NCBI GenBank assembly: GCA_016234405.1
Contig: JACRCC010000032.1
Location: 4,360-68,359 of the forward strand
Direction of reading: 5' to 3'
DNA length: 64,000 nt
Source: Deltaproteobacteria bacterium
GTDB taxonomy: Bacteria; Desulfobacterota; GWC2-55-46
Shown: positions 41,243 to 50,088 of the stretch, piece by piece
Position numbering within the stretch: the stretch's first letter is position 1
Layout of the letters: the number at the start of each line of letters is the position of its first letter
Made by a program: the position numbers and the translations under genes
Notes under the pieces: model-generated
The model's database searches: none
Told to the model about the DNA's origin: nothing
What the model saw: the letters and a program-made list of their open reading frames with translations, nothing else

Positions 41243-41740
41243 TTGAAGGACACAGGCTTTCTGCAGGACAACATAAGCGTCATCGAGAGCCTCAAAAAAC
41301 TCCCGATAATAAGCTCGCTCGAAGACAGGCACATAAAGGGGCTTGTGAAACTCTGCAAGATTATCGAATATGCCCCCGGTGAGCGCATATTCGCGGAGGA
41401 TGGTTTCGATCAGCACCTCTACATCCTCATATCCGGCAAGGTTAGCGTGCTCAAAAATGGCGTCGAGGTGAGCGCCCTCACGAAGCCCGGAGACATCTTC
41501 GGAGAGATGGGGATAATTGACGCCGCCGCGAGAAGCGCGTCCGTCTTTGCGGTAGACAAGGTCAGTTGCCTGAAGATGGACGCCTCCTTCATGGACAGAC
41601 TCAAGGGAGAAGAAAAACAGACCGTCGTCTGCGTCGTCAACAAGGTTTTTACGGAGATGCTCTCCGACCGCCTCCGGAAAACCACGGAGGAGTTCATAAA
41701 GGCGAAAGAGGAACTTGAGAGACTCAAAAAGCGCGGTTAA
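41243..41740 (+). CDS. Cyclic nucleotide-binding domain protein
   Basis: cNMP-binding beta-roll 'GDIFGEMGIID'. TTG start; there is no in-frame ATG. Confidence 0.7.
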   Translation: MKDTGFLQDNISVIESLKKLPIISSLEDRHIKGLVKLCKIIEYAPGERIFAEDGFDQHLYILISGKVSVLKNGVEVSALTKPGDIFGEMGIIDAAARSASVFAVDKVSCLKMDASFMDRLKGEEKQTVVCVVNKVFTEMLSDRLRKTTEEFIKAKEELERLKKRG

Positions 41741-42270: not shown

Positions 42271-42313
42271 AAAGCGAGGCGCCCTCCCCGCGGGGAGGGC
42301 GCCTCGCTTTTGT
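42271..42313. terminator. Bidirectional intrinsic terminator between the YHS gene and osmC
   Basis: 16-bp perfect stem gcgaggcgccctcccc / gggagggcgcctcgc, GCG loop, then TTTTGT. A-rich upstream. Confidence 0.7.
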
Positions 42314-42321
42314 GTCTCCCC

Positions 42322-42843
42322 CTACGCTATCTTCAACTCGGTCTCAAGCGGTATCGGGTTCGTGAGACAATAAACGGCAGGACAGCGCTGTCTTGAGAGT
42401 TCTTCAAGCTGCTTAATCTTATCCTTGGGCGCGACGCTTTCGACGTAGAGCGTAAACTTCACCTTCTCGGCTATGGGGTTGTTTGACAGTCCGAAGACCT
42501 TCGAGAAATCAATATTGCTCTCGGCAGTTACCTTGAGCTTTTTAAGCGCAATCCCTTCCATTGCGGCCATTGTCGCAAACGTCGCAACGTAGCAGGACGC
42601 CGAACCGTAGAGGCAATATATCATAGGCCCCGGCTTTGTCCCGCCCCCTCCGAGGAAACCCGGCTGATCGGTCTCAAGGGTAATCTTGCCGTTTTCAAAG
42701 CTCACCTCAGCCTTGAACTGCGCGCCTCCGGCGAGGTTCCACTCGCCTTCCACCTTATTCGTCTTCTTCGCCTTGGATAAGTCCTTTTGCGCGTCGGCGA
42801 TTGTGCCCTTCAACTTCTCGACGTTTACGTTATTGATTCCCAT
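42322..42843 (-). CDS. osmC: OsmC/Ohr family peroxiredoxin-like protein
   Basis: OsmC fold with conserved Cys. AAGGAGG Shine-Dalgarno. Confidence 0.8.
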   Translation of the reverse strand: MGINNVNVEKLKGTIADAQKDLSKAKKTNKVEGEWNLAGGAQFKAEVSFENGKITLETDQPGFLGGGGTKPGPMIYCLYGSASCYVATFATMAAMEGIALKKLKVTAESNIDFSKVFGLSNNPIAEKVKFTLYVESVAPKDKIKQLEELSRQRCPAVYCLTNPIPLETELKIA

Positions 42844-42860: not shown

Positions 42861-43895
42861 TTACTCAATCCTTATCCTCCAGCCATCTTCCCGCGCAACG
42901 CACATACCTATAATCGCCGCGTTTACGCCTTTGGATCTAAGCGCGTCAACTAATTTTGCCGCCCTGCCCTGCGGCGCGGACAACAAAAGTCCACCCGAAG
43001 TCTGCGGGTCGTAAAGAAGCATCTCAACGGCGGCATCAACATTTACGCACCTCACCTCGTCTTTCAAAAACTCCATGTTCGAGGCTATGCTTCGGGGTCT
43101 ACATATCTTCTTCTTAACAAGCTCCGTTGCCATCGGGAAAAACGGAACTTGGGCGGCCTTGATGACAAAATTCACGCTTGACGCCCTGCACATCTCCATC
43201 GCGTGTCCCATAAGACCGTATCCGGTAACGTCGGTCGCGGCCTTGACGCCAAACCCCGCCATGACGATGGACGCGGCCCTATTGAGCGTTTTCATCGCCT
43301 CTATCGTTACGTCAGCGTCTTTTATCTTTCCGGCCTTGAGCCCGCTTGTGATGACGCCTGAGCCGATTGGCTTGGTTAATATAATTGAATCGCCTATCCT
43401 TGCGCCCGCGTTAGTTATGACCCTCTCCGGGTGAACGAACCCCGTAACCGAGAGGCCGTATTTTATCTCCGAGTCCTCTATCGAATGGCCGCCCACCAAA
43501 AGCACGCCCGCCTCACCCAACTTGTCCATGCTGCCGCGTATAATCTCGTTCAAGGGTTCAAGCGGCAGGGCTTTAGGATAACATACGATGTTCATGGCAA
43601 GACGCGGCGTCCCGCCCATTGCATAAACGTCCGAGAGGGCGTTTGCCGCGGCAATTTGACCGAAGGTGAACGGGTCGTCCAGTATCGGCGGAAAAAAATC
43701 GAGAGTCGTAACCACGGCCGTATCGCCCGACATTCGATACACGCCCGCGTCGTCGGCCTTGTCAAAACCTACAAGCAGATTTTTATCCTTTGGTATCGGG
43801 AGCTGATGCAGGACCTGCATCAGGGCGTTGGCGCTCATCTTGGCCGCTCAACCCGCGCAGGACGCCCATGACGTAAGTTTTATCTTTTTGCCCAT
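42861..43895 (-). CDS. selD: Selenide, water dikinase SelD, selenocysteine-containing (in-frame TGA at 43848-43850)
   Basis: The track ORF begins at 43838. Reading upstream in frame gives MGKKIKLTSWASCAG-U-AAKMSANAL, which aligns with the E. coli SelD N-terminus LTQYSHGAG-C-GCKISPKVL. The Sec/Cys of the catalytic loop falls on the TGA. Confidence 0.8.
43803..43823 (-). ncRNA. Candidate bacterial SECIS hairpin in selD mRNA (cugaugcag-GUC-cugcaucag), 24 nt 3' of the UGA
   Basis: Perfect 9-bp stem with G/U in the apical loop. Spacing is somewhat longer than the canonical roughly 11 nt to the helix base. Confidence 0.45.
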
Positions 43896-43932: not shown

Positions 43933-44640
43933 TTATATATAACCCTTAATCTTATAAAGCACAAGTCCGGCATACTCCCACATCACCTCGCCCAAAAGCC
44001 CGACTCTCTCGAATGCGCTCGTCCTGTGCCCCGTATAGTTCGCCACAGGCGCCGGATAAAAACCCATGCCGAGTTTTTTGGCGGTCAAGGATGCCCTGAG
44101 CATGTGCGTGGGTCCGGTTACGACGAGGCAGGTCTTGAGTTTTTTTTCATCCATATACGCCTTTGCGTTCCTCAGGTTCTCGTAGGTGGACGCGGAGCGA
44201 GCATCTGCCGCAACCAACCTTTGCGGGATGCCGAGCCTTGCGGAGATGTCCTTCATGATAGACGCCTCCACGACGCTTACGGCGGTTATGCCCTCTTCGC
44301 CGGAGACCGACCTGAGTATCTTTCTTGCCGGGTCAATGATGGTGCCGCCGGAAAACATTATCCTCGGCGCCCAACCGTCCTTGTAGAGCAGCAGCCCGTG
44401 AATAAGCCTTTCATTCGACGCCCCGCCGAGCGTCCCGTTGGCATAAGCCCCGCCGCCCAAGACGATTATGAGGTCGGTTTTGATAAGGCTTTGCGGCATG
44501 ATAAGAGGCGCGGCGAGCATATTGGCCGCAGGGGAATACATGATGACGAGAAACGCAACGGTAAACGCGAAGCAAAACCACTTTATGAAACCCCTTATTG
44601 CGCCGGCAGCCTTTATTAACGCAGACCCTCTCTCAGCCAT
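43933..44640 (-). CDS. DUF218 (YdcF/ElyC/SanA-like) domain protein
   Basis: 'LIIVLGGG...ERLIHGLLLYKDGWAPRIMFSGG' matches DUF218. Confidence 0.7.
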   Translation of the reverse strand: MAERGSALIKAAGAIRGFIKWFCFAFTVAFLVIMYSPAANMLAAPLIMPQSLIKTDLIIVLGGGAYANGTLGGASNERLIHGLLLYKDGWAPRIMFSGGTIIDPARKILRSVSGEEGITAVSVVEASIMKDISARLGIPQRLVAADARSASTYENLRNAKAYMDEKKLKTCLVVTGPTHMLRASLTAKKLGMGFYPAPVANYTGHRTSAFERVGLLGEVMWEYAGLVLYKIKGYI

Positions 44641-44661: not shown

Positions 44662-46617
44662 TCATTCCCCTCTCAAAACCCGCTCGTCGCCCTTTCTCAC
44701 GGTAAAACCCTCCCTATCGAAAAACTCAAGTATCTCTATCGCAAGTTTCCTGCCGCAGCCAAGGGCGTCACGAAATTCCGACGCCTTTATGCCGCCCGTT
44801 GCCTTTACAATCTCCTCCAACCGGGCTCCGGCCTCCTTGACGGACGCGCCGGATATGAAAGACCCCTCCGTGAGCCTTACCACGACGGGGGCTACCCCCC
44901 CCGCGCCCTTCCTCTGAAGGTATCCGAGCGCCTTTTCAATCTCGCTTTTCTTGAAAGGGAGCTTCATTATATCAGCGGAGCTTACGGCAGTAAACCCTTT
45001 AGGTATGAGGTTTAAAACAGCCTTCTCGATTTCCGATTGCGCGGACGACGCGGAGGCTGAAAACCCCGGAAGGCTCAATGCCGGCCCTGTCCTTTTTAGT
45101 ATTCCCCTTTTTAAAAGGTCTTCGAGAAATAACCTCATGAGTTCATGAGACAATGGCCTGCCAACGGCTCGCATAAAAACGTTTAGAAGCGCCTCTTCGC
45201 TCATGCCCGCGTCCATTGGGTTTGCCCCGTGATGTTCGGAGACTGCGTCAATGGCCTTTTTTTCCAATGCCGAAAAGACGCGGGGGTCAACGATAAATGC
45301 GCCCAAAATCGTAAAGCCCCCCTCGCCTTGCCGCGAAAGCCCTTTTAAGAATCCCTCCTTTACGTTGAGTTTAAGAGTCGCCTCTGCAATTTCAATAAAA
45401 CCCGCCTCCCTTACGAGCGTTGCGGCAAGTTCCGCAACGTCCTCCGCGTCGAAGATACCGGTTGTCTTAAGAGGAAGCGCCTCGGACCTTGAAAAGTAAG
45501 GGGTGACGACCGTGCCGCCGCCGATTGTCCGGTTTTTTGAGACGTCCCTTATTATGAACCTGTCGCCGCGCAGCATCAAAAGCGGCTTATTTAATATGAG
45601 CCTGCCTGCAACAAGCCCGTTTTTATTTTTTTTCGCGCTGCCTCTTAGACTTATTCTGCACAACGCATCGTCCGTCAGGTGGTGCGCCCGCATCTGAAAG
45701 TTTTTTTTGGAAGACGCGCCCTCGCCCTCGACAAACTCGAATACCGCGTCCACGTATTGAATCTTAGACTCAAGCGCAAACTGCCGGTATCGGACAAGAG
45801 CCGTGCTTGCCGCGACTTCTCCGCGCCCTATCTCGGAATGTGAAACGCCCGTAAGGTTGAGCGCGGCCCTCTCGCCTCTACACGCCGAATCCACCGCCGT
45901 ATGCAGGCTCTCGATACCGCGCACCCTTACCTTTTTCCCGGACGGAAAAAGGACGAGTTCATCGCCTTTTTTCACGCTGCCTGACGCTATCGCGCCGGTT
46001 ACGACTGCGCCGAAACCTTTCCGCGCAAACACGCGGTCTACTGGGAGCCTAAAAAAGGCGTCTGTCGCGCTTGGCGTTGCCGAAGACAGAACCCTGTTTT
46101 TAATCAGCCCCCTGAGTTCATCCATGCCCGCGCCGGTTACGGTTGAAACCCCTATTACCGGAGAGCCTGAAAGGACGGTATTTTTTATGAGCGCCTTGAC
46201 CATTTCTTTCACCTCGTCAACCCTTTCAGAAGAAACGAGGTCGGTCTTGGTTATTGTGAAGATGCCCTTTTTTACGCCGAGGAATCGCACCGCGTCAAGG
46301 TGCTCGGTGGTCTGCGGCATGACGCCGTCGTCCGCGGCTATAGCAAAGAGAACGAAGTTTATCCCGGTTGCGCCCGCGAGCATGTTTTTTATGAACCTCT
46401 CATGCCCCGGCACGTCAACGAAGGCCGCCTTGATGGATTTACCGTCTCCGGCCTCTACGACAATGTGCGCGAACCCCAAATCAATGGATATCCCCCTTTT
46501 TTTCTCCTCAGGAAGCCTGTCGGTATCCATACCCGTGAGCGCCCGGACAAGGGACGTCTTGCCGTGGTCTATGTGCCCGGCCGTGCCTATGACGCATGGT
46601 ATATTCTCTTTTAACAT
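44662..46617 (-). CDS. selB: Selenocysteine-specific elongation factor SelB
   Basis: EF-Tu-like GTPase 'GHIDHGKTSL', 'DVPGHERF', plus long C-terminal winged-helix extensions. Confidence 0.85.
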   Translation of the reverse strand: MLKENIPCVIGTAGHIDHGKTSLVRALTGMDTDRLPEEKKRGISIDLGFAHIVVEAGDGKSIKAAFVDVPGHERFIKNMLAGATGINFVLFAIAADDGVMPQTTEHLDAVRFLGVKKGIFTITKTDLVSSERVDEVKEMVKALIKNTVLSGSPVIGVSTVTGAGMDELRGLIKNRVLSSATPSATDAFFRLPVDRVFARKGFGAVVTGAIASGSVKKGDELVLFPSGKKVRVRGIESLHTAVDSACRGERAALNLTGVSHSEIGRGEVAASTALVRYRQFALESKIQYVDAVFEFVEGEGASSKKNFQMRAHHLTDDALCRISLRGSAKKNKNGLVAGRLILNKPLLMLRGDRFIIRDVSKNRTIGGGTVVTPYFSRSEALPLKTTGIFDAEDVAELAATLVREAGFIEIAEATLKLNVKEGFLKGLSRQGEGGFTILGAFIVDPRVFSALEKKAIDAVSEHHGANPMDAGMSEEALLNVFMRAVGRPLSHELMRLFLEDLLKRGILKRTGPALSLPGFSASASSAQSEIEKAVLNLIPKGFTAVSSADIMKLPFKKSEIEKALGYLQRKGAGGVAPVVVRLTEGSFISGASVKEAGARLEEIVKATGGIKASEFRDALGCGRKLAIEILEFFDREGFTVRKGDERVLRGE

Positions 46618-46772: not shown

Positions 46773-47558
46773 ATGCCGCAAAAACCGAAAGTGGCGTTTT
46801 TCTCCTTTACCTGCTGCGAAGGCTGCCAGCTCGCGGTGTTAAGCTGCGAGGACGAGCTGCCGGAGATAATAAAAGACGTTAATATCGTGAACTTCCGCGA
46901 GGCTTTTGACCAGCGGAGCGAGGACTACGAAATTGCGTTCATAGAAGGCTCCATCAGCAGAAAAGACGAAATCCACAAACTAAAAAAGATTCGCGCAAAG
47001 GCACGGGTGGTCGTGGCCCTTGGCGCGTGCTCCTCGACCGGAGGGCTAAATTGCCTAAAAAATCTCTATCCCATGGAGTTCGTCAAAAAAGAGGTCTACG
47101 GCAAAAACGCATCGAGATACCCCAGATTCGACACCATGCCGGTAAAGCCCGTTGACGCTTTCATACATGTTGACCACTACATACACGGCTGCCCAATACC
47201 GAAAAAGGAATTCCTGTCGGTCTTCACGTCCCTCTTGATGGGCAGCGTCCCGGTCATGGCGAATTACCCGGTGTGCGTAGACTGCAAGATGGCGGGCAAT
47301 ATCTGCGTATTCGAGAAAGGCATGACGTGCGTGGGGCCGGTAACAAGGGCCGGGTGCGACGCGATATGCGTCACCTACGGGTGCGTATGCTGGGGGTGCA
47401 GGGGTTTTGTGGACGACCCCAACGTCGCCTCGCACGAGGAAACGCTTAAAAGATACGGGATGGCGCACAGCGAAGTCATTAGGAGTTTCAACCTCTACGG
47501 CGAGCGCAAGATGGAGCCGAAGGCTGCATCAATGAAGTCCAAAACGAAATGCCGGTAA
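46773..47558 (+). CDS. Group 3 [NiFe] hydrogenase small subunit (MvhG/HydD-like, with C-terminal Fe-S cluster cysteines)
   Basis: 'FTCCEGCQLAV...GACSSTGG' proximal-cluster motifs and a Cys-rich C-terminus. Confidence 0.8.
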   Translation: MPQKPKVAFFSFTCCEGCQLAVLSCEDELPEIIKDVNIVNFREAFDQRSEDYEIAFIEGSISRKDEIHKLKKIRAKARVVVALGACSSTGGLNCLKNLYPMEFVKKEVYGKNASRYPRFDTMPVKPVDAFIHVDHYIHGCPIPKKEFLSVFTSLLMGSVPVMANYPVCVDCKMAGNICVFEKGMTCVGPVTRAGCDAICVTYGCVCWGCRGFVDDPNVASHEETLKRYGMAHSEVIRSFNLYGERKMEPKAASMKSKTKCR

Positions 47559-48844
47559 AAAAAGACCTGCACATACGCATTGACGAGCTGACGCGCGTCG
47601 AGGGGCACGGCAACGTCGTCATTGACCTCAAAAAAGGACGCATCAACACGCTAAACCTTGAGATAATTGAATCTCCGCGCTTCTTCGAGGTGATGCTCAG
47701 GGGCCGGAAATACGACGAGGCGCATCACATCATGTCGCGCATCTGCGGCATCTGCGCAGTGAGCCACACAAGCGCGTCCTTGAAGGCCATAGAGGCCGCG
47801 ATGAAAATAAATATTTCGCGCCAAGCAACGCTCCTCAGAAAACTCGCCTTCTGCGCCGAAGTGATCCAGAGCCACGTACTGCACCTTTATTTTCTCGTAT
47901 TCCCGGATTTTCTCGGCGAAGGCTCCATCGTCCCCATCATGTCCGCGCACCCGGAGATAACAAAAAGGGGATTGATGCTCAAAAGGCTCGCCAACGAAAT
48001 CTGCGCGAAGGTGGCAGGAAGGCACATCCATCCGATATCCCTTTCCCCCGGAGGCGTGACCCATACGCCCAAGCCGTCGGAGCTTAAAAAACTCAAGGCC
48101 CAGCTTGAGGCGTCGTTTGACGACCTCGAATACACGGTTGATCTTTTGTCAAAGGTCCGCGTCAGAGAGTTCACGAAACCGCGCGAATATATCTCTCTCA
48201 AAGACAGGGGCGAATACGGCATCTACGGCGGGGTCCCGTGCACGAGCCGCAAATATCCGTTGAGCGAAAAGACCTACGCCAAGAAACTCAAGGAATATGT
48301 CGTGCCCCACTCGGCCGCCAAACACGCAAAAAGTCCTAAGGGCACGTACATGGTCGGGGCGCTTGCGAGGCTCAACAACAACTGGGCGCAGCTCGGCAAA
48401 CGCGCCAGAGCCGTATCCAAAAGACTCGGGCTGTCTCCCGTGTGCCACAACCCCTTCCACAACAACACCGCTCAACTCGTCGAATGTTTCCATCTGACCG
48501 GGCAGGCCATATCTCTTATAGACGAACTCCTCGACATGGGCGTAAAAAAAGAATCTCTCAAAAAACCTAAGGGCTTTGGAGTCGGCTTCGGTTTAGTCGA
48601 GGCGCCAAGGGGCACGCTCTACCACGAATACGCCATAAACAAGGACGGCATCGTGGAGACCGCCAACTGCATTATCCCGACCGCGCAAAATCTGCGCTCA
48701 ATCGAAGAAGATCTAAGAGAAATGGTGCCGGAGATTCTTGACCTGCCAAAAGAAGAGATACGCAAAGCCGTGGAATCGCTCGTGAGGGCATACGACCCGT
48801 GCATATCATGCTCCACGCACATAATGAACGTGCGGTTCGAGTAG
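47549..48844 (+). CDS. Group 3 [NiFe] hydrogenase large subunit (Cys, not Sec, in the C-terminal motif)
   Basis: L1 motif 'RICGICAVSH'. C-terminal 'DPCISCSTH' followed by only 7 residues. Confidence 0.85.
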   Translation: MPVKKDLHIRIDELTRVEGHGNVVIDLKKGRINTLNLEIIESPRFFEVMLRGRKYDEAHHIMSRICGICAVSHTSASLKAIEAAMKINISRQATLLRKLAFCAEVIQSHVLHLYFLVFPDFLGEGSIVPIMSAHPEITKRGLMLKRLANEICAKVAGRHIHPISLSPGGVTHTPKPSELKKLKAQLEASFDDLEYTVDLLSKVRVREFTKPREYISLKDRGEYGIYGGVPCTSRKYPLSEKTYAKKLKEYVVPHSAAKHAKSPKGTYMVGALARLNNNWAQLGKRARAVSKRLGLSPVCHNPFHNNTAQLVECFHLTGQAISLIDELLDMGVKKESLKKPKGFGVGFGLVEAPRGTLYHEYAINKDGIVETANCIIPTAQNLRSIEEDLREMVPEILDLPKEEIRKAVESLVRAYDPCISCSTHIMNVRFE

Positions 48845-48921
48845 CAAATGTATTTCTCTTGTAAAAACCCCAATTTTTGTTGTATATATCTTTAACGGTC
48901 ACGGTTCACGGTCACGGCCTT

Positions 48922-50088
48922 ATGCGCATAAACATTGCCCAACAAAGCATCATAGACAAGATACTTGAGCGGGACATCCTCAAGACCTTTAAGGCCGAAA
49001 AAGTGGACCTGAGGGCCATGTTGAAGGAAATCCTCCTTTGGGCCAATAAATTCGTGCCTTCGGAATCAGGCTCCGTGCTCCTTGACGACCCAACGTTCAG
49101 CTGCAAGGAAAAAGAAAACGCGAAGGGTACTCCCCTCTGCGGCGTGCTCTACTTCGTGGCCTGCTTCGGCAAAGGCTCCTCCGCGCTTGCCGACACCGCC
49201 CTGCCGGTGAACGTCGGCATAGTCGGCCAGACATATCAATCCGGAAAACCCTACATCAGCAAGACCGTAAAAGAGGATTCCCGTTTCTACTCAGGCATAG
49301 ACAGGAAGACCAAGTTTCGGACCAAATCCATCGTCTGCGCGCCGATAAGGTTAAAGGGGCAAACCATCGGCGTAATTGAGCTTATAAACCGGTTGAACGG
49401 CATCGCCTACACGAAAAACGACCTTACGCTCCTGAAGATCTTCGCGGAGTACACATCCACGCTCGTCCAAAATTCCCTCGACGCAAAGATGTTCGCGGAA
49501 CTTTCCATGAGCGACAATCTCACCGGCCTTTTCAACGACAGGTACTTCTACAGCAGACTCGCAAAAGAGGCGCTGACGGCGCGCAAGCACGGGGGCGATT
49601 TGAGCCTCGTATTCCTCGACCTCGACAGGTTCAAAGAGGTCAACGACAAACACGGCCACCTTGCGGGCAGCATGGTGCTCACCGAGGTCGGCCGGATAAT
49701 ACGGGGAACGCTCCCGCGGGAAAGCTCAAAGGCGGCGCGGTTCGGCGGGGACGAGTTCGTCGTGATACTGCCGGGGTTGAATTTAGAGAAATCCTCCGAG
49801 TATGCGGAGAAACTCAGGCGCTCCGTAGAGGACTATACGTTTCTAAGGCACGCCCTATATAGAGGCGCCAAACCCATCATGCTAAGCGGACACATTACGA
49901 TATCCATCGGCGTGGCGTCGCTGCGCGCTAACGTCAAACCCGTTGGCTCGGTAAACGAGGTCAGGGACGCCTTGATACGACAGTCGGATACGGCCATGTA
50001 CAAATCAAAGGAAAACGGCAAGAACAGATACACCGCGGCAGAGGGTAAGATCGACCCGACGGAGGCTACAGGCAAAAAAGATTCCTAA
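48922..50088 (+). CDS. GAF domain-containing diguanylate cyclase (GGDEF)
   Basis: GAF region, then 'RFGGDEF'. The track start at 48877 reads through a family-C repeat (TVTVHGHG). Start taken at 'MRINIAQ'. Confidence 0.8.
   Translation: MRINIAQQSIIDKILERDILKTFKAEKVDLRAMLKEILLWANKFVPSESGSVLLDDPTFSCKEKENAKGTPLCGVLYFVACFGKGSSALADTALPVNVGIVGQTYQSGKPYISKTVKEDSRFYSGIDRKTKFRTKSIVCAPIRLKGQTIGVIELINRLNGIAYTKNDLTLLKIFAEYTSTLVQNSLDAKMFAELSMSDNLTGLFNDRYFYSRLAKEALTARKHGGDLSLVFLDLDRFKEVNDKHGHLAGSMVLTEVGRIIRGTLPRESSKAARFGGDEFVVILPGLNLEKSSEYAEKLRRSVEDYTFLRHALYRGAKPIMLSGHITISIGVASLRANVKPVGSVNEVRDALIRQSDTAMYKSKENGKNRYTAAEGKIDPTEATGKKDS

Follow-up and report, generated by a model that had tools for sequence, protein, structure and literature searches.

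The locus raises the question of where its selD gene begins, and of how a TGA triplet that lies in the same frame just upstream of the called gene is read. The mechanical listing of open reading frames in the window (the whole 64-kb stretch of DNA that was analysed) reported a Met-started frame of 325 aa at 42861-43838 on the minus strand, with MSANALMQVL as its N-terminus. As the initial annotation had pointed out, this frame lacks the catalytic N-terminus of SelD, in such a way that the loop holding the equivalents of Cys17 and Lys20 of E. coli is entirely absent from it. It had further been proposed that the gene encodes a selenoprotein with a selenocysteine (Sec) codon that ORF calling missed, and every one of the sequence facts and coordinates given for this proposal held on re-check.

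The selD Gene Model and Its Family

Upstream of the 325-aa frame, an in-frame extension of 57 nt leads to an ATG at 43895 and reads MGKKIKLTSWASCAG, followed by the TGA and by AAKMSANAL. Apart from this ATG, no in-frame start occurs from the preceding stop to the TGA, and no clear Shine-Dalgarno sequence was found ahead of the ATG. Read on the minus strand from 43895, the frame runs MGKKIKLTSWASCAG-TGA-AAKMSANALMQVLHQLP and ends at the TAA at 42863-42861, giving a full-length coding sequence (42861-43895, minus strand) of 344 residues plus the TAA stop, with the putative Sec as codon 16. Around this codon, the extended reading is MGKKIKLTSWASCAG-UGA-AAKMSANALMQVL, with the UGA at 43850-43848.

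The 344-residue protein was searched against profiles with Cys in place of the TGA. It matched the SelD equivalog TIGR00476 with 366.7 bits (cutoff 125), with residues 6-309 of the query on profile positions 1-308, and also NF002098 with 309.1 bits, above the curated equivalog threshold of 299, so that the comparison with SelD profiles suggested by the initial annotation placed the extended translation above the cutoff of both. The two Pfam domains of AIR-synthase-related proteins were detected as well, the N-terminal one (AIRS, PF00586) with 87.2 bits and the C-terminal one (AIRS_C, PF02769) with 61 bits. Among proteins of known structure, the SelD enzymes from Aquifex (2yye, E = 1e-72) and E. 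coli (3u0o, E = 1e-61) were matched. On these profile and structural matches, the product of selD is a member of the SelD (selenide, water dikinase) family, for which the synthesis of selenophosphate is predicted.

The alignment with 3u0o is gapless across the N-terminus, pairing kikltswascagCaaK of the protein described here with sirltqyshgagCgcK of the E. coli enzyme. The putative Sec-encoding UGA (codon 16; 43848-43850, minus strand) falls exactly on Cys17 of E. coli SelD, as had been claimed, and Lys19, three residues on, is the equivalent of Lys20, both positions being ungapped in the alignments with 3u0o and 2yye. The Gly-rich N-terminal loop with its Cys/Sec and Lys is present in this SelD only if the gene is extended up to 43895. 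A failure of the extended N-terminus to match SelD homologues would have spoken against the proposal, but it aligns with TIGR00476, 3u0o and 2yye. The position of the true start at 43895 is likewise supported, as SelD profiles align from their position 1 and an upstream start is conserved in relatives. The 325-aa call at 42861-43838 is an N-terminally truncated artefact of taking the UGA as a stop, and the annotation of selD can be corrected by moving its start to 43895 and marking 43848-43850 as a translation exception (Sec).

Truncated SelD Entries in Protein Databases

A protein search retrieved the truncated 325-aa database call of this same gene (P0001, 100% identity), the other retrieved proteins being at most 87% identical to the SelD described here. 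Of the 120 best homologues that the search retrieved, most start at an arbitrary Met past the Sec codon and are devoid of the catalytic loop. These are mainly proteins of 320-329 aa that begin at varied Met residues just downstream of the Sec position (MQVLHQLP..., MGPDALMQVL..., MAQEPLTQVL...), and only a minority, of 347-348 aa, read through the loop as ...CAGCAAK.... That a Sec-UGA selD had been missed by ORF calling therefore holds for P0001 and for most of its close homologues, which are truncated at assorted Met residues. Six of the entries that begin downstream of the Sec position (P0020, P0038, P0047, P0051, P0056 and P0103; 320-327 aa) carry the NCBI name "selenide, water dikinase SelD". 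SelD models without their catalytic loop are thus pervasive in public protein sets, where they stand under the full functional name.

Codon State and N-Terminus in Related Loci

The comparative DNA set comprised 81 loci, from genomes and metagenome-assembled genomes (MAGs), and the window; the active-site motif was located, and scored, in 74. For eight SelD-related loci (L005, L049, L051, L062, L066, L072, L077 and L081) the regular expression for the active site found no motif, and they stand outside the Sec/Cys counts; they may have divergent loops, be fusions, or be cut by a contig end. The codon homologous to UGA-16 is TGA in 50 of the 74 loci and TGC or TGT in the other 24, with Thermodesulfobacteriota, Bacillota, Acidobacteriota, Planctomycetota, Chloroflexota and others among the TGA loci. 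The flanks of this codon are conserved, with [KR]LT...AG upstream and AAK...DDAGVY downstream.

In nearly all the TGA loci an in-frame start is found 13-20 codons upstream of the TGA, and it is followed by a conserved [KR]-L-T. By contrast, only seven TGA loci out of 50 have an ATG at codon +4, the position of the called start in the window, and 22 have their first ATG at +77, a start with which much of the N-terminal region of SelD would be lost. Consistent use of the downstream ATG by relatives, which would have spoken against the extended gene, was therefore not what the comparison revealed. In the syntenic locus L001, 87% identical, the TGA and both arms of the hairpin described below are unchanged, the loop going from GUC to GUG. 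Between this locus and selD, the 15 codons that precede the TGA differ by one replacement and four synonymous changes, one of which is TCC to AGC (Ser in either case), and since these changes are mostly synonymous, the 15 codons behave as translated sequence.

A Candidate bSECIS Downstream of the UGA

The candidate apical hairpin of a bacterial SECIS (bSECIS) is located at 43803-43823 on the minus strand, with its 5' arm at 43823-43815, a GUC loop at 43814-43812 that is a Val codon, and its 3' arm at 43811-43803. It reads CUGAUGCAG-GUC-CUGCAUCAG and forms a perfect stem of 9 bp closed by a loop of 3 nt, beginning 24 nt past the TGA; this description, G/U-containing loop included, agrees in all its details with the one first given. 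A perfect inverted repeat of 10 nt is found at this site, and the element lies wholly within the coding sequence, where it encodes L-M-Q-V-L-H-Q. Folded alone, the hairpin has an energy of -12.7 kcal/mol (z = -3.1), a value equalled by one of 200 shuffled sequences, and the local fold of its 71-nt context is unremarkable (z = -1.0); such single-sequence thermodynamics is only suggestive.

The published constraints for a bSECIS (PMC13188914) are a loop of 3-9 nt with a G in its first two positions, a stem of 4-16 bp, a UGA-to-loop spacing of 16-37 nt and a minimum free energy (MFE) of -7.5 kcal/mol or lower. The selD hairpin passes all four, with its GUC loop, 9 bp, a spacing of 33 nt and an energy of -12.0 kcal/mol when the stem is taken alone. 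As a window-wide control, 92 of 1,985 TGA triplets (4.6%) were followed by a hairpin passing the constraints, the stem reaching 9 bp or more in only 20 of them, and when the local selD sequence was shuffled, 40 of 2,000 versions (2%) passed. Chance pairing is excluded on the basis of these two low rates and because TGA and hairpin recur together across relatives. No Rfam family matched the element, either when the whole window was scanned at gathering thresholds or in a permissive scan of the element only, which gave nothing beyond chance-level hits at E > 2.

Association of the Hairpin with the UGA and Covariation of Its Stem

Contiguous pairs were counted in fixed registers, with the loop at +37-39, as in the selD described here, or at +24-26 or +23-27. 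Among the 50 TGA loci, 34 have a stem of 6 bp or longer, compared with none of the 24 Cys loci (Fisher p = 4e-9, a value that overstates independence and is not exact, the loci being phylogenetically related). In the TGA genes, the same registers moved downstream by 60-210 nt yielded such stems in 0-2 of the 50. The full set of published constraints gave a similar contrast, with 29/50 TGA loci and 2/24 Cys loci passing (p = 4e-5, inexact for the same reason). Sixteen of the TGA loci show no stem of 6 bp or longer in either of the tested registers. TGA and Cys loci were not distinguished by the raw MFE of the 63 nt that follow the codon (-19.2 vs -21.4 kcal/mol, p = 0.14); the Cys lineages appeared to be more GC-rich.

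Covariation was analysed in the 17 loci that share the register of the selD hairpin. Five of the nine stem pairs show compensatory changes, amounting to 27 double-sided cells. Pairing was found in 92.8% of the cells, a percentage that is partly circular as the 17 sequences were picked for a stem in register, against 74.9% after shuffling of partners and 27-51% when the columns were slid by 1-3. The covariation score was 0.564, compared to 0.208 ± 0.032 for the shuffled and 0.05-0.13 for the slid controls. Both the compensatory changes and the contrast between TGA and Cys loci are independent of the selection of the 17 sequences. In 16 of these 17, the loop is GUN. The residues encoded by the arms vary (LMQ-V-LHQ, LSQ-V-LRG, LVQ-V-LRE, LAQ-V-LCD and others), and as they shift together with the paired arms, the hairpin is not a by-product of a conserved peptide.

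The bSECIS elements of SelD were observed to fall in two discrete registers. In one, used by around 17 loci with the selD described here among them, a 3-nt GUN loop that is a Val codon lies at +37-39; in the other, also of around 17 loci, the loop is GGN or AGA at +24-26, mostly a Gly codon, or has 5 nt at +23-27. Each register dictates the local amino-acid sequence. Some TGA loci outside both registers carry other hairpins, as in the Moorella-like L020 and L023. The only Cys loci that pass the bSECIS constraints are L004 and L016, Cys-type selD genes of Christensenellales with loops GGUG and GGGC at +17-20, whose hairpins could be GC-rich chance matches or what is left of an earlier SECIS following conversion of Sec to Cys.

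Genomic Context and Selenium Machinery

The second gene upstream of selD is selB, as initially described, at 44662-46617 on the minus strand. Its product matched TIGR00475 with 352 bits (cutoff 242) and has the domains GTP_EFTU, Beta-barrel_SelB, SelB-wing_2 and SelB-wing_3. The winged-helix domains of SelB bind the SECIS RNA. A single gene lies between selB and selD (43933-44640, minus strand), encoding an ElyC/YdcF-like protein with a DUF218 domain (PF02698, 78.5 bits), for which we know of no link to selenium. At the other side, 17 nt downstream of selD and preceded by a strong AAGGAGG ribosome-binding site, an OsmC-like gene was found at 42322-42843 on the minus strand (PF02566, 54 bits). 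The best NCBIfam match of this gene was NF041052, named "OsmC-related (seleno)protein", with 73.7 bits, below the cutoff of 95; it contains Cys residues, and TGA is absent from its frame.

Just past the OsmC stop, a very strong hairpin resembling an intrinsic terminator is located at 42271-42310 on the minus strand, with 18 bp, 13 of them G-C, and a T-rich tail, as a pattern match only. A shorter form of this palindrome was also picked up on the plus strand, and it could terminate transcription both ways. A promoter-like site is found ahead of selB, at 46682-46654. This arrangement suggests a single selB-DUF218-selD-osmC transcript, with selB first and osmC last and with its putative 3' end at the terminator-like hairpin.

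Among the 81 related loci, selB lies at 4 kb or less from selD in 15, and the presence beside selD of DUF218, OsmC and a divergent [NiFe] hydrogenase is shared only by L001. The hydrogenase pair, of small and large subunits, is located at 46773-48844 on the plus strand, divergent from selB, which it also adjoins in L001. Its best matches were sulfhydrogenase-like delta and alpha subunits and VhuG/VhuA, none of which came close to its cutoff, and its C-terminal motif DPCISCSTH corresponds to the Cys form and not to a NiFeSe enzyme. The selenium and hydrogenase cluster is flanked, in the window and in L001, by a gene for a GAF-GGDEF protein similar to diguanylate cyclases (48877-50088, plus strand) and by one for a protein with a cNMP-binding domain (41243-41740, plus strand).

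No tRNA gene, tRNA-Sec (selC) included, was detected by ARAGORN in the 64-kb window, and selA was absent from the ten mid-sized ORFs of the window that were tested, which were only housekeeping genes (PilT, AhcY, MetK, RadA, TrmFO, RodA and others). We assume that selA and selC are located elsewhere in the genome, completing the Sec machinery. A crude scan for other genes with in-frame TGA gave no convincing candidate, a result that carries no information, as selD itself was missed because of further TGAs upstream. TGA is the ordinary stop of 12 of the 37 long ORFs of the window, selB included, and the standard code therefore applies. An alternative genetic code was also considered, and was rejected on this same count.

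Discussion

The data presented here support, with a probability that we put at about 0.93, that this is an ordinary SelD-Sec gene, whose UGA-16 is recoded through the downstream bSECIS and whose translation starts at the ATG at 43895. The proposal of a selenoprotein SelD with a missed Sec-UGA and a bSECIS is thus upheld by homology, by the comparative codon data, by covariation of the RNA and by the presence of selB. Translation would begin at ATG 43895, and the ribosome would meet the UGA at codon 16. The hairpin at 24-44 nt past it (43823-43803) would then act as a bacterial SECIS, in such a way that SelB, with GTP and Sec-tRNA(Sec), would recognise the apical G-U loop and deliver Sec to the A site, avoiding termination. 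The Sec would be placed in the flexible Gly-rich N-terminal loop (CAG-U-AAK) as the selenium-binding catalytic residue of an enzyme predicted to make selenophosphate from selenide and ATP. Both the insertion of Sec and the binding of SelB in selD are inferred here from sequence. SelD would also need its own product to be made, which would amount to a positive feedback, as in the autoregulation of the selenium pathway that the initial annotation had put forward. Autoregulation of SelD is reportedly the question posed in the title of a PNAS article published in 1996 by Guimaraes et al.

Three other explanations were weighed. Were the TGA a genuine stop, the product would be a truncated SelD-like protein of 325 aa starting at ATG 43838, and the 15 codons upstream would be a leader or non-coding sequence. 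This is the model that gene callers give for P0001 and most of its homologues, and there is an ATG four codons past the TGA. We consider it highly improbable, as the upstream codons are conserved at the protein level and fall on positions 1-15 of the SelD profile, the ATG at +4 exists in only 7/50 TGA loci, with the first ATG at +77 in 22/50, the product would be devoid of the equivalents of E. coli Cys17 and Lys20, and a covarying hairpin is found specifically after TGA and not after Cys codons. A TGA that arose by sequencing or assembly error, or by a recent inactivating mutation of a TGC or TGT Cys codon, would turn the gene into an artefact or a pseudogene. The change requires a single substitution, and the window probably comes from an environmental assembly, its closest matches being MAG or metagenome contigs. 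Yet L001 (87% identity), an independent assembly, has this TGA as well, as do 48 other loci, the remaining ORF is intact and keeps the full SelD score, and both hairpin and selB would be left as unexplained coincidences, all of which leaves error or inactivation with a chance slightly smaller still than that of a genuine stop.

The same very low probability is given to the hairpin being a by-product of the LMQVLHQ motif, with the UGA read in some other way, either by near-cognate read-through or through a reassigned code. In agreement with this, the hairpin is wholly coding, QVL is conserved and many close relatives have LMQVLHQLP, and no Rfam family matches it. A peptide constraint does not account, however, for arms that vary in sequence and in encoded residues and still pair, with 27 double-sided changes, nor for the absence of the stem in all 24 Cys-type homologues of similar protein sequence. 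In addition, TGA stops 12/37 ORFs, which speaks against a reassigned code, and a dedicated SelB is encoded alongside. A recoded UGA-16 in a standard SelD-Sec gene is, therefore, the reading that we retain.

Regarding the neighbouring genes, we also considered that the DUF218 protein, the OsmC-like protein or both could be lineage-specific partners of the Sec-type SelD in the handling of selenium, for example in the delivery of selenide or the protection of the selenol. The idea starts from the selB-DUF218-selD-osmC arrangement, which ends at a strong terminator-like hairpin, and from the sub-threshold match of the OsmC-like protein to NF041052, and we regard it as unlikely; the two bSECIS registers are a second, more descriptive point.

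In prokaryotes, Sec is encoded by 19% of the SelD genes, "always in the same position" (Mariotti et al. 2015, PMC4561486), and no bacterial selenoproteins are more widespread than SelD and FdhA (Zhang et al. 2006, PMC1794560; PMC13188914), with SelD-Sec present in most selenoprotein-rich Deltaproteobacteria and Clostridia (Zhang et al. 2006, PMC1794560). The idea of autoregulation is traced to Guimaraes et al. 1996, as listed in PMC8659212 (its reference 22). Both the SelD-Sec arrangement and the autoregulation hypothesis are, thus, already known, in literature from 1996 on. The locus adds one more case, with standard recoding, of a selenoprotein that ranks second by breadth of occurrence in bacteria, and its value is practical. 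SelD-Sec and selB mark the source organism as a user of selenocysteine, and more genes with in-frame UGA are expected in its genome.

Compared with E. coli SelD (Cys17, 3u0o), the protein described here belongs to the same fold family and keeps the same register of the catalytic loop, xAG-[C/U]-xxK, with a match of E = 1e-61. Whereas the E. coli gene has a Cys codon (TGC) without SECIS, the selD described here has a UGA for the predicted Sec, followed by the hairpin. The SECIS of E. coli fdhF has a bulged U. Relative to the consensus bSECIS, the selD hairpin is perfectly paired, with a minimal loop of 3 nt and no bulge, and no lower stem back to the UGA is confidently predicted. Its loop size, stem, G-then-U, spacing and energy are all in the range of the bSECISearch consensus (as given in PMC13188914). 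The catalogued SelD-Sec proteins, from Deltaproteobacteria/Thermodesulfobacteriota, Clostridia, Aquifex and Pasteurellales, belong to the same TIGR00476 family and have the single known Sec position, with the bSECIS likewise immediately downstream in the coding sequence and an anaerobe-type context next to selB. No substantive difference separates the selD described here from them, and only its selB-DUF218-selD-osmC gene order is restricted, being shared with one close relative.
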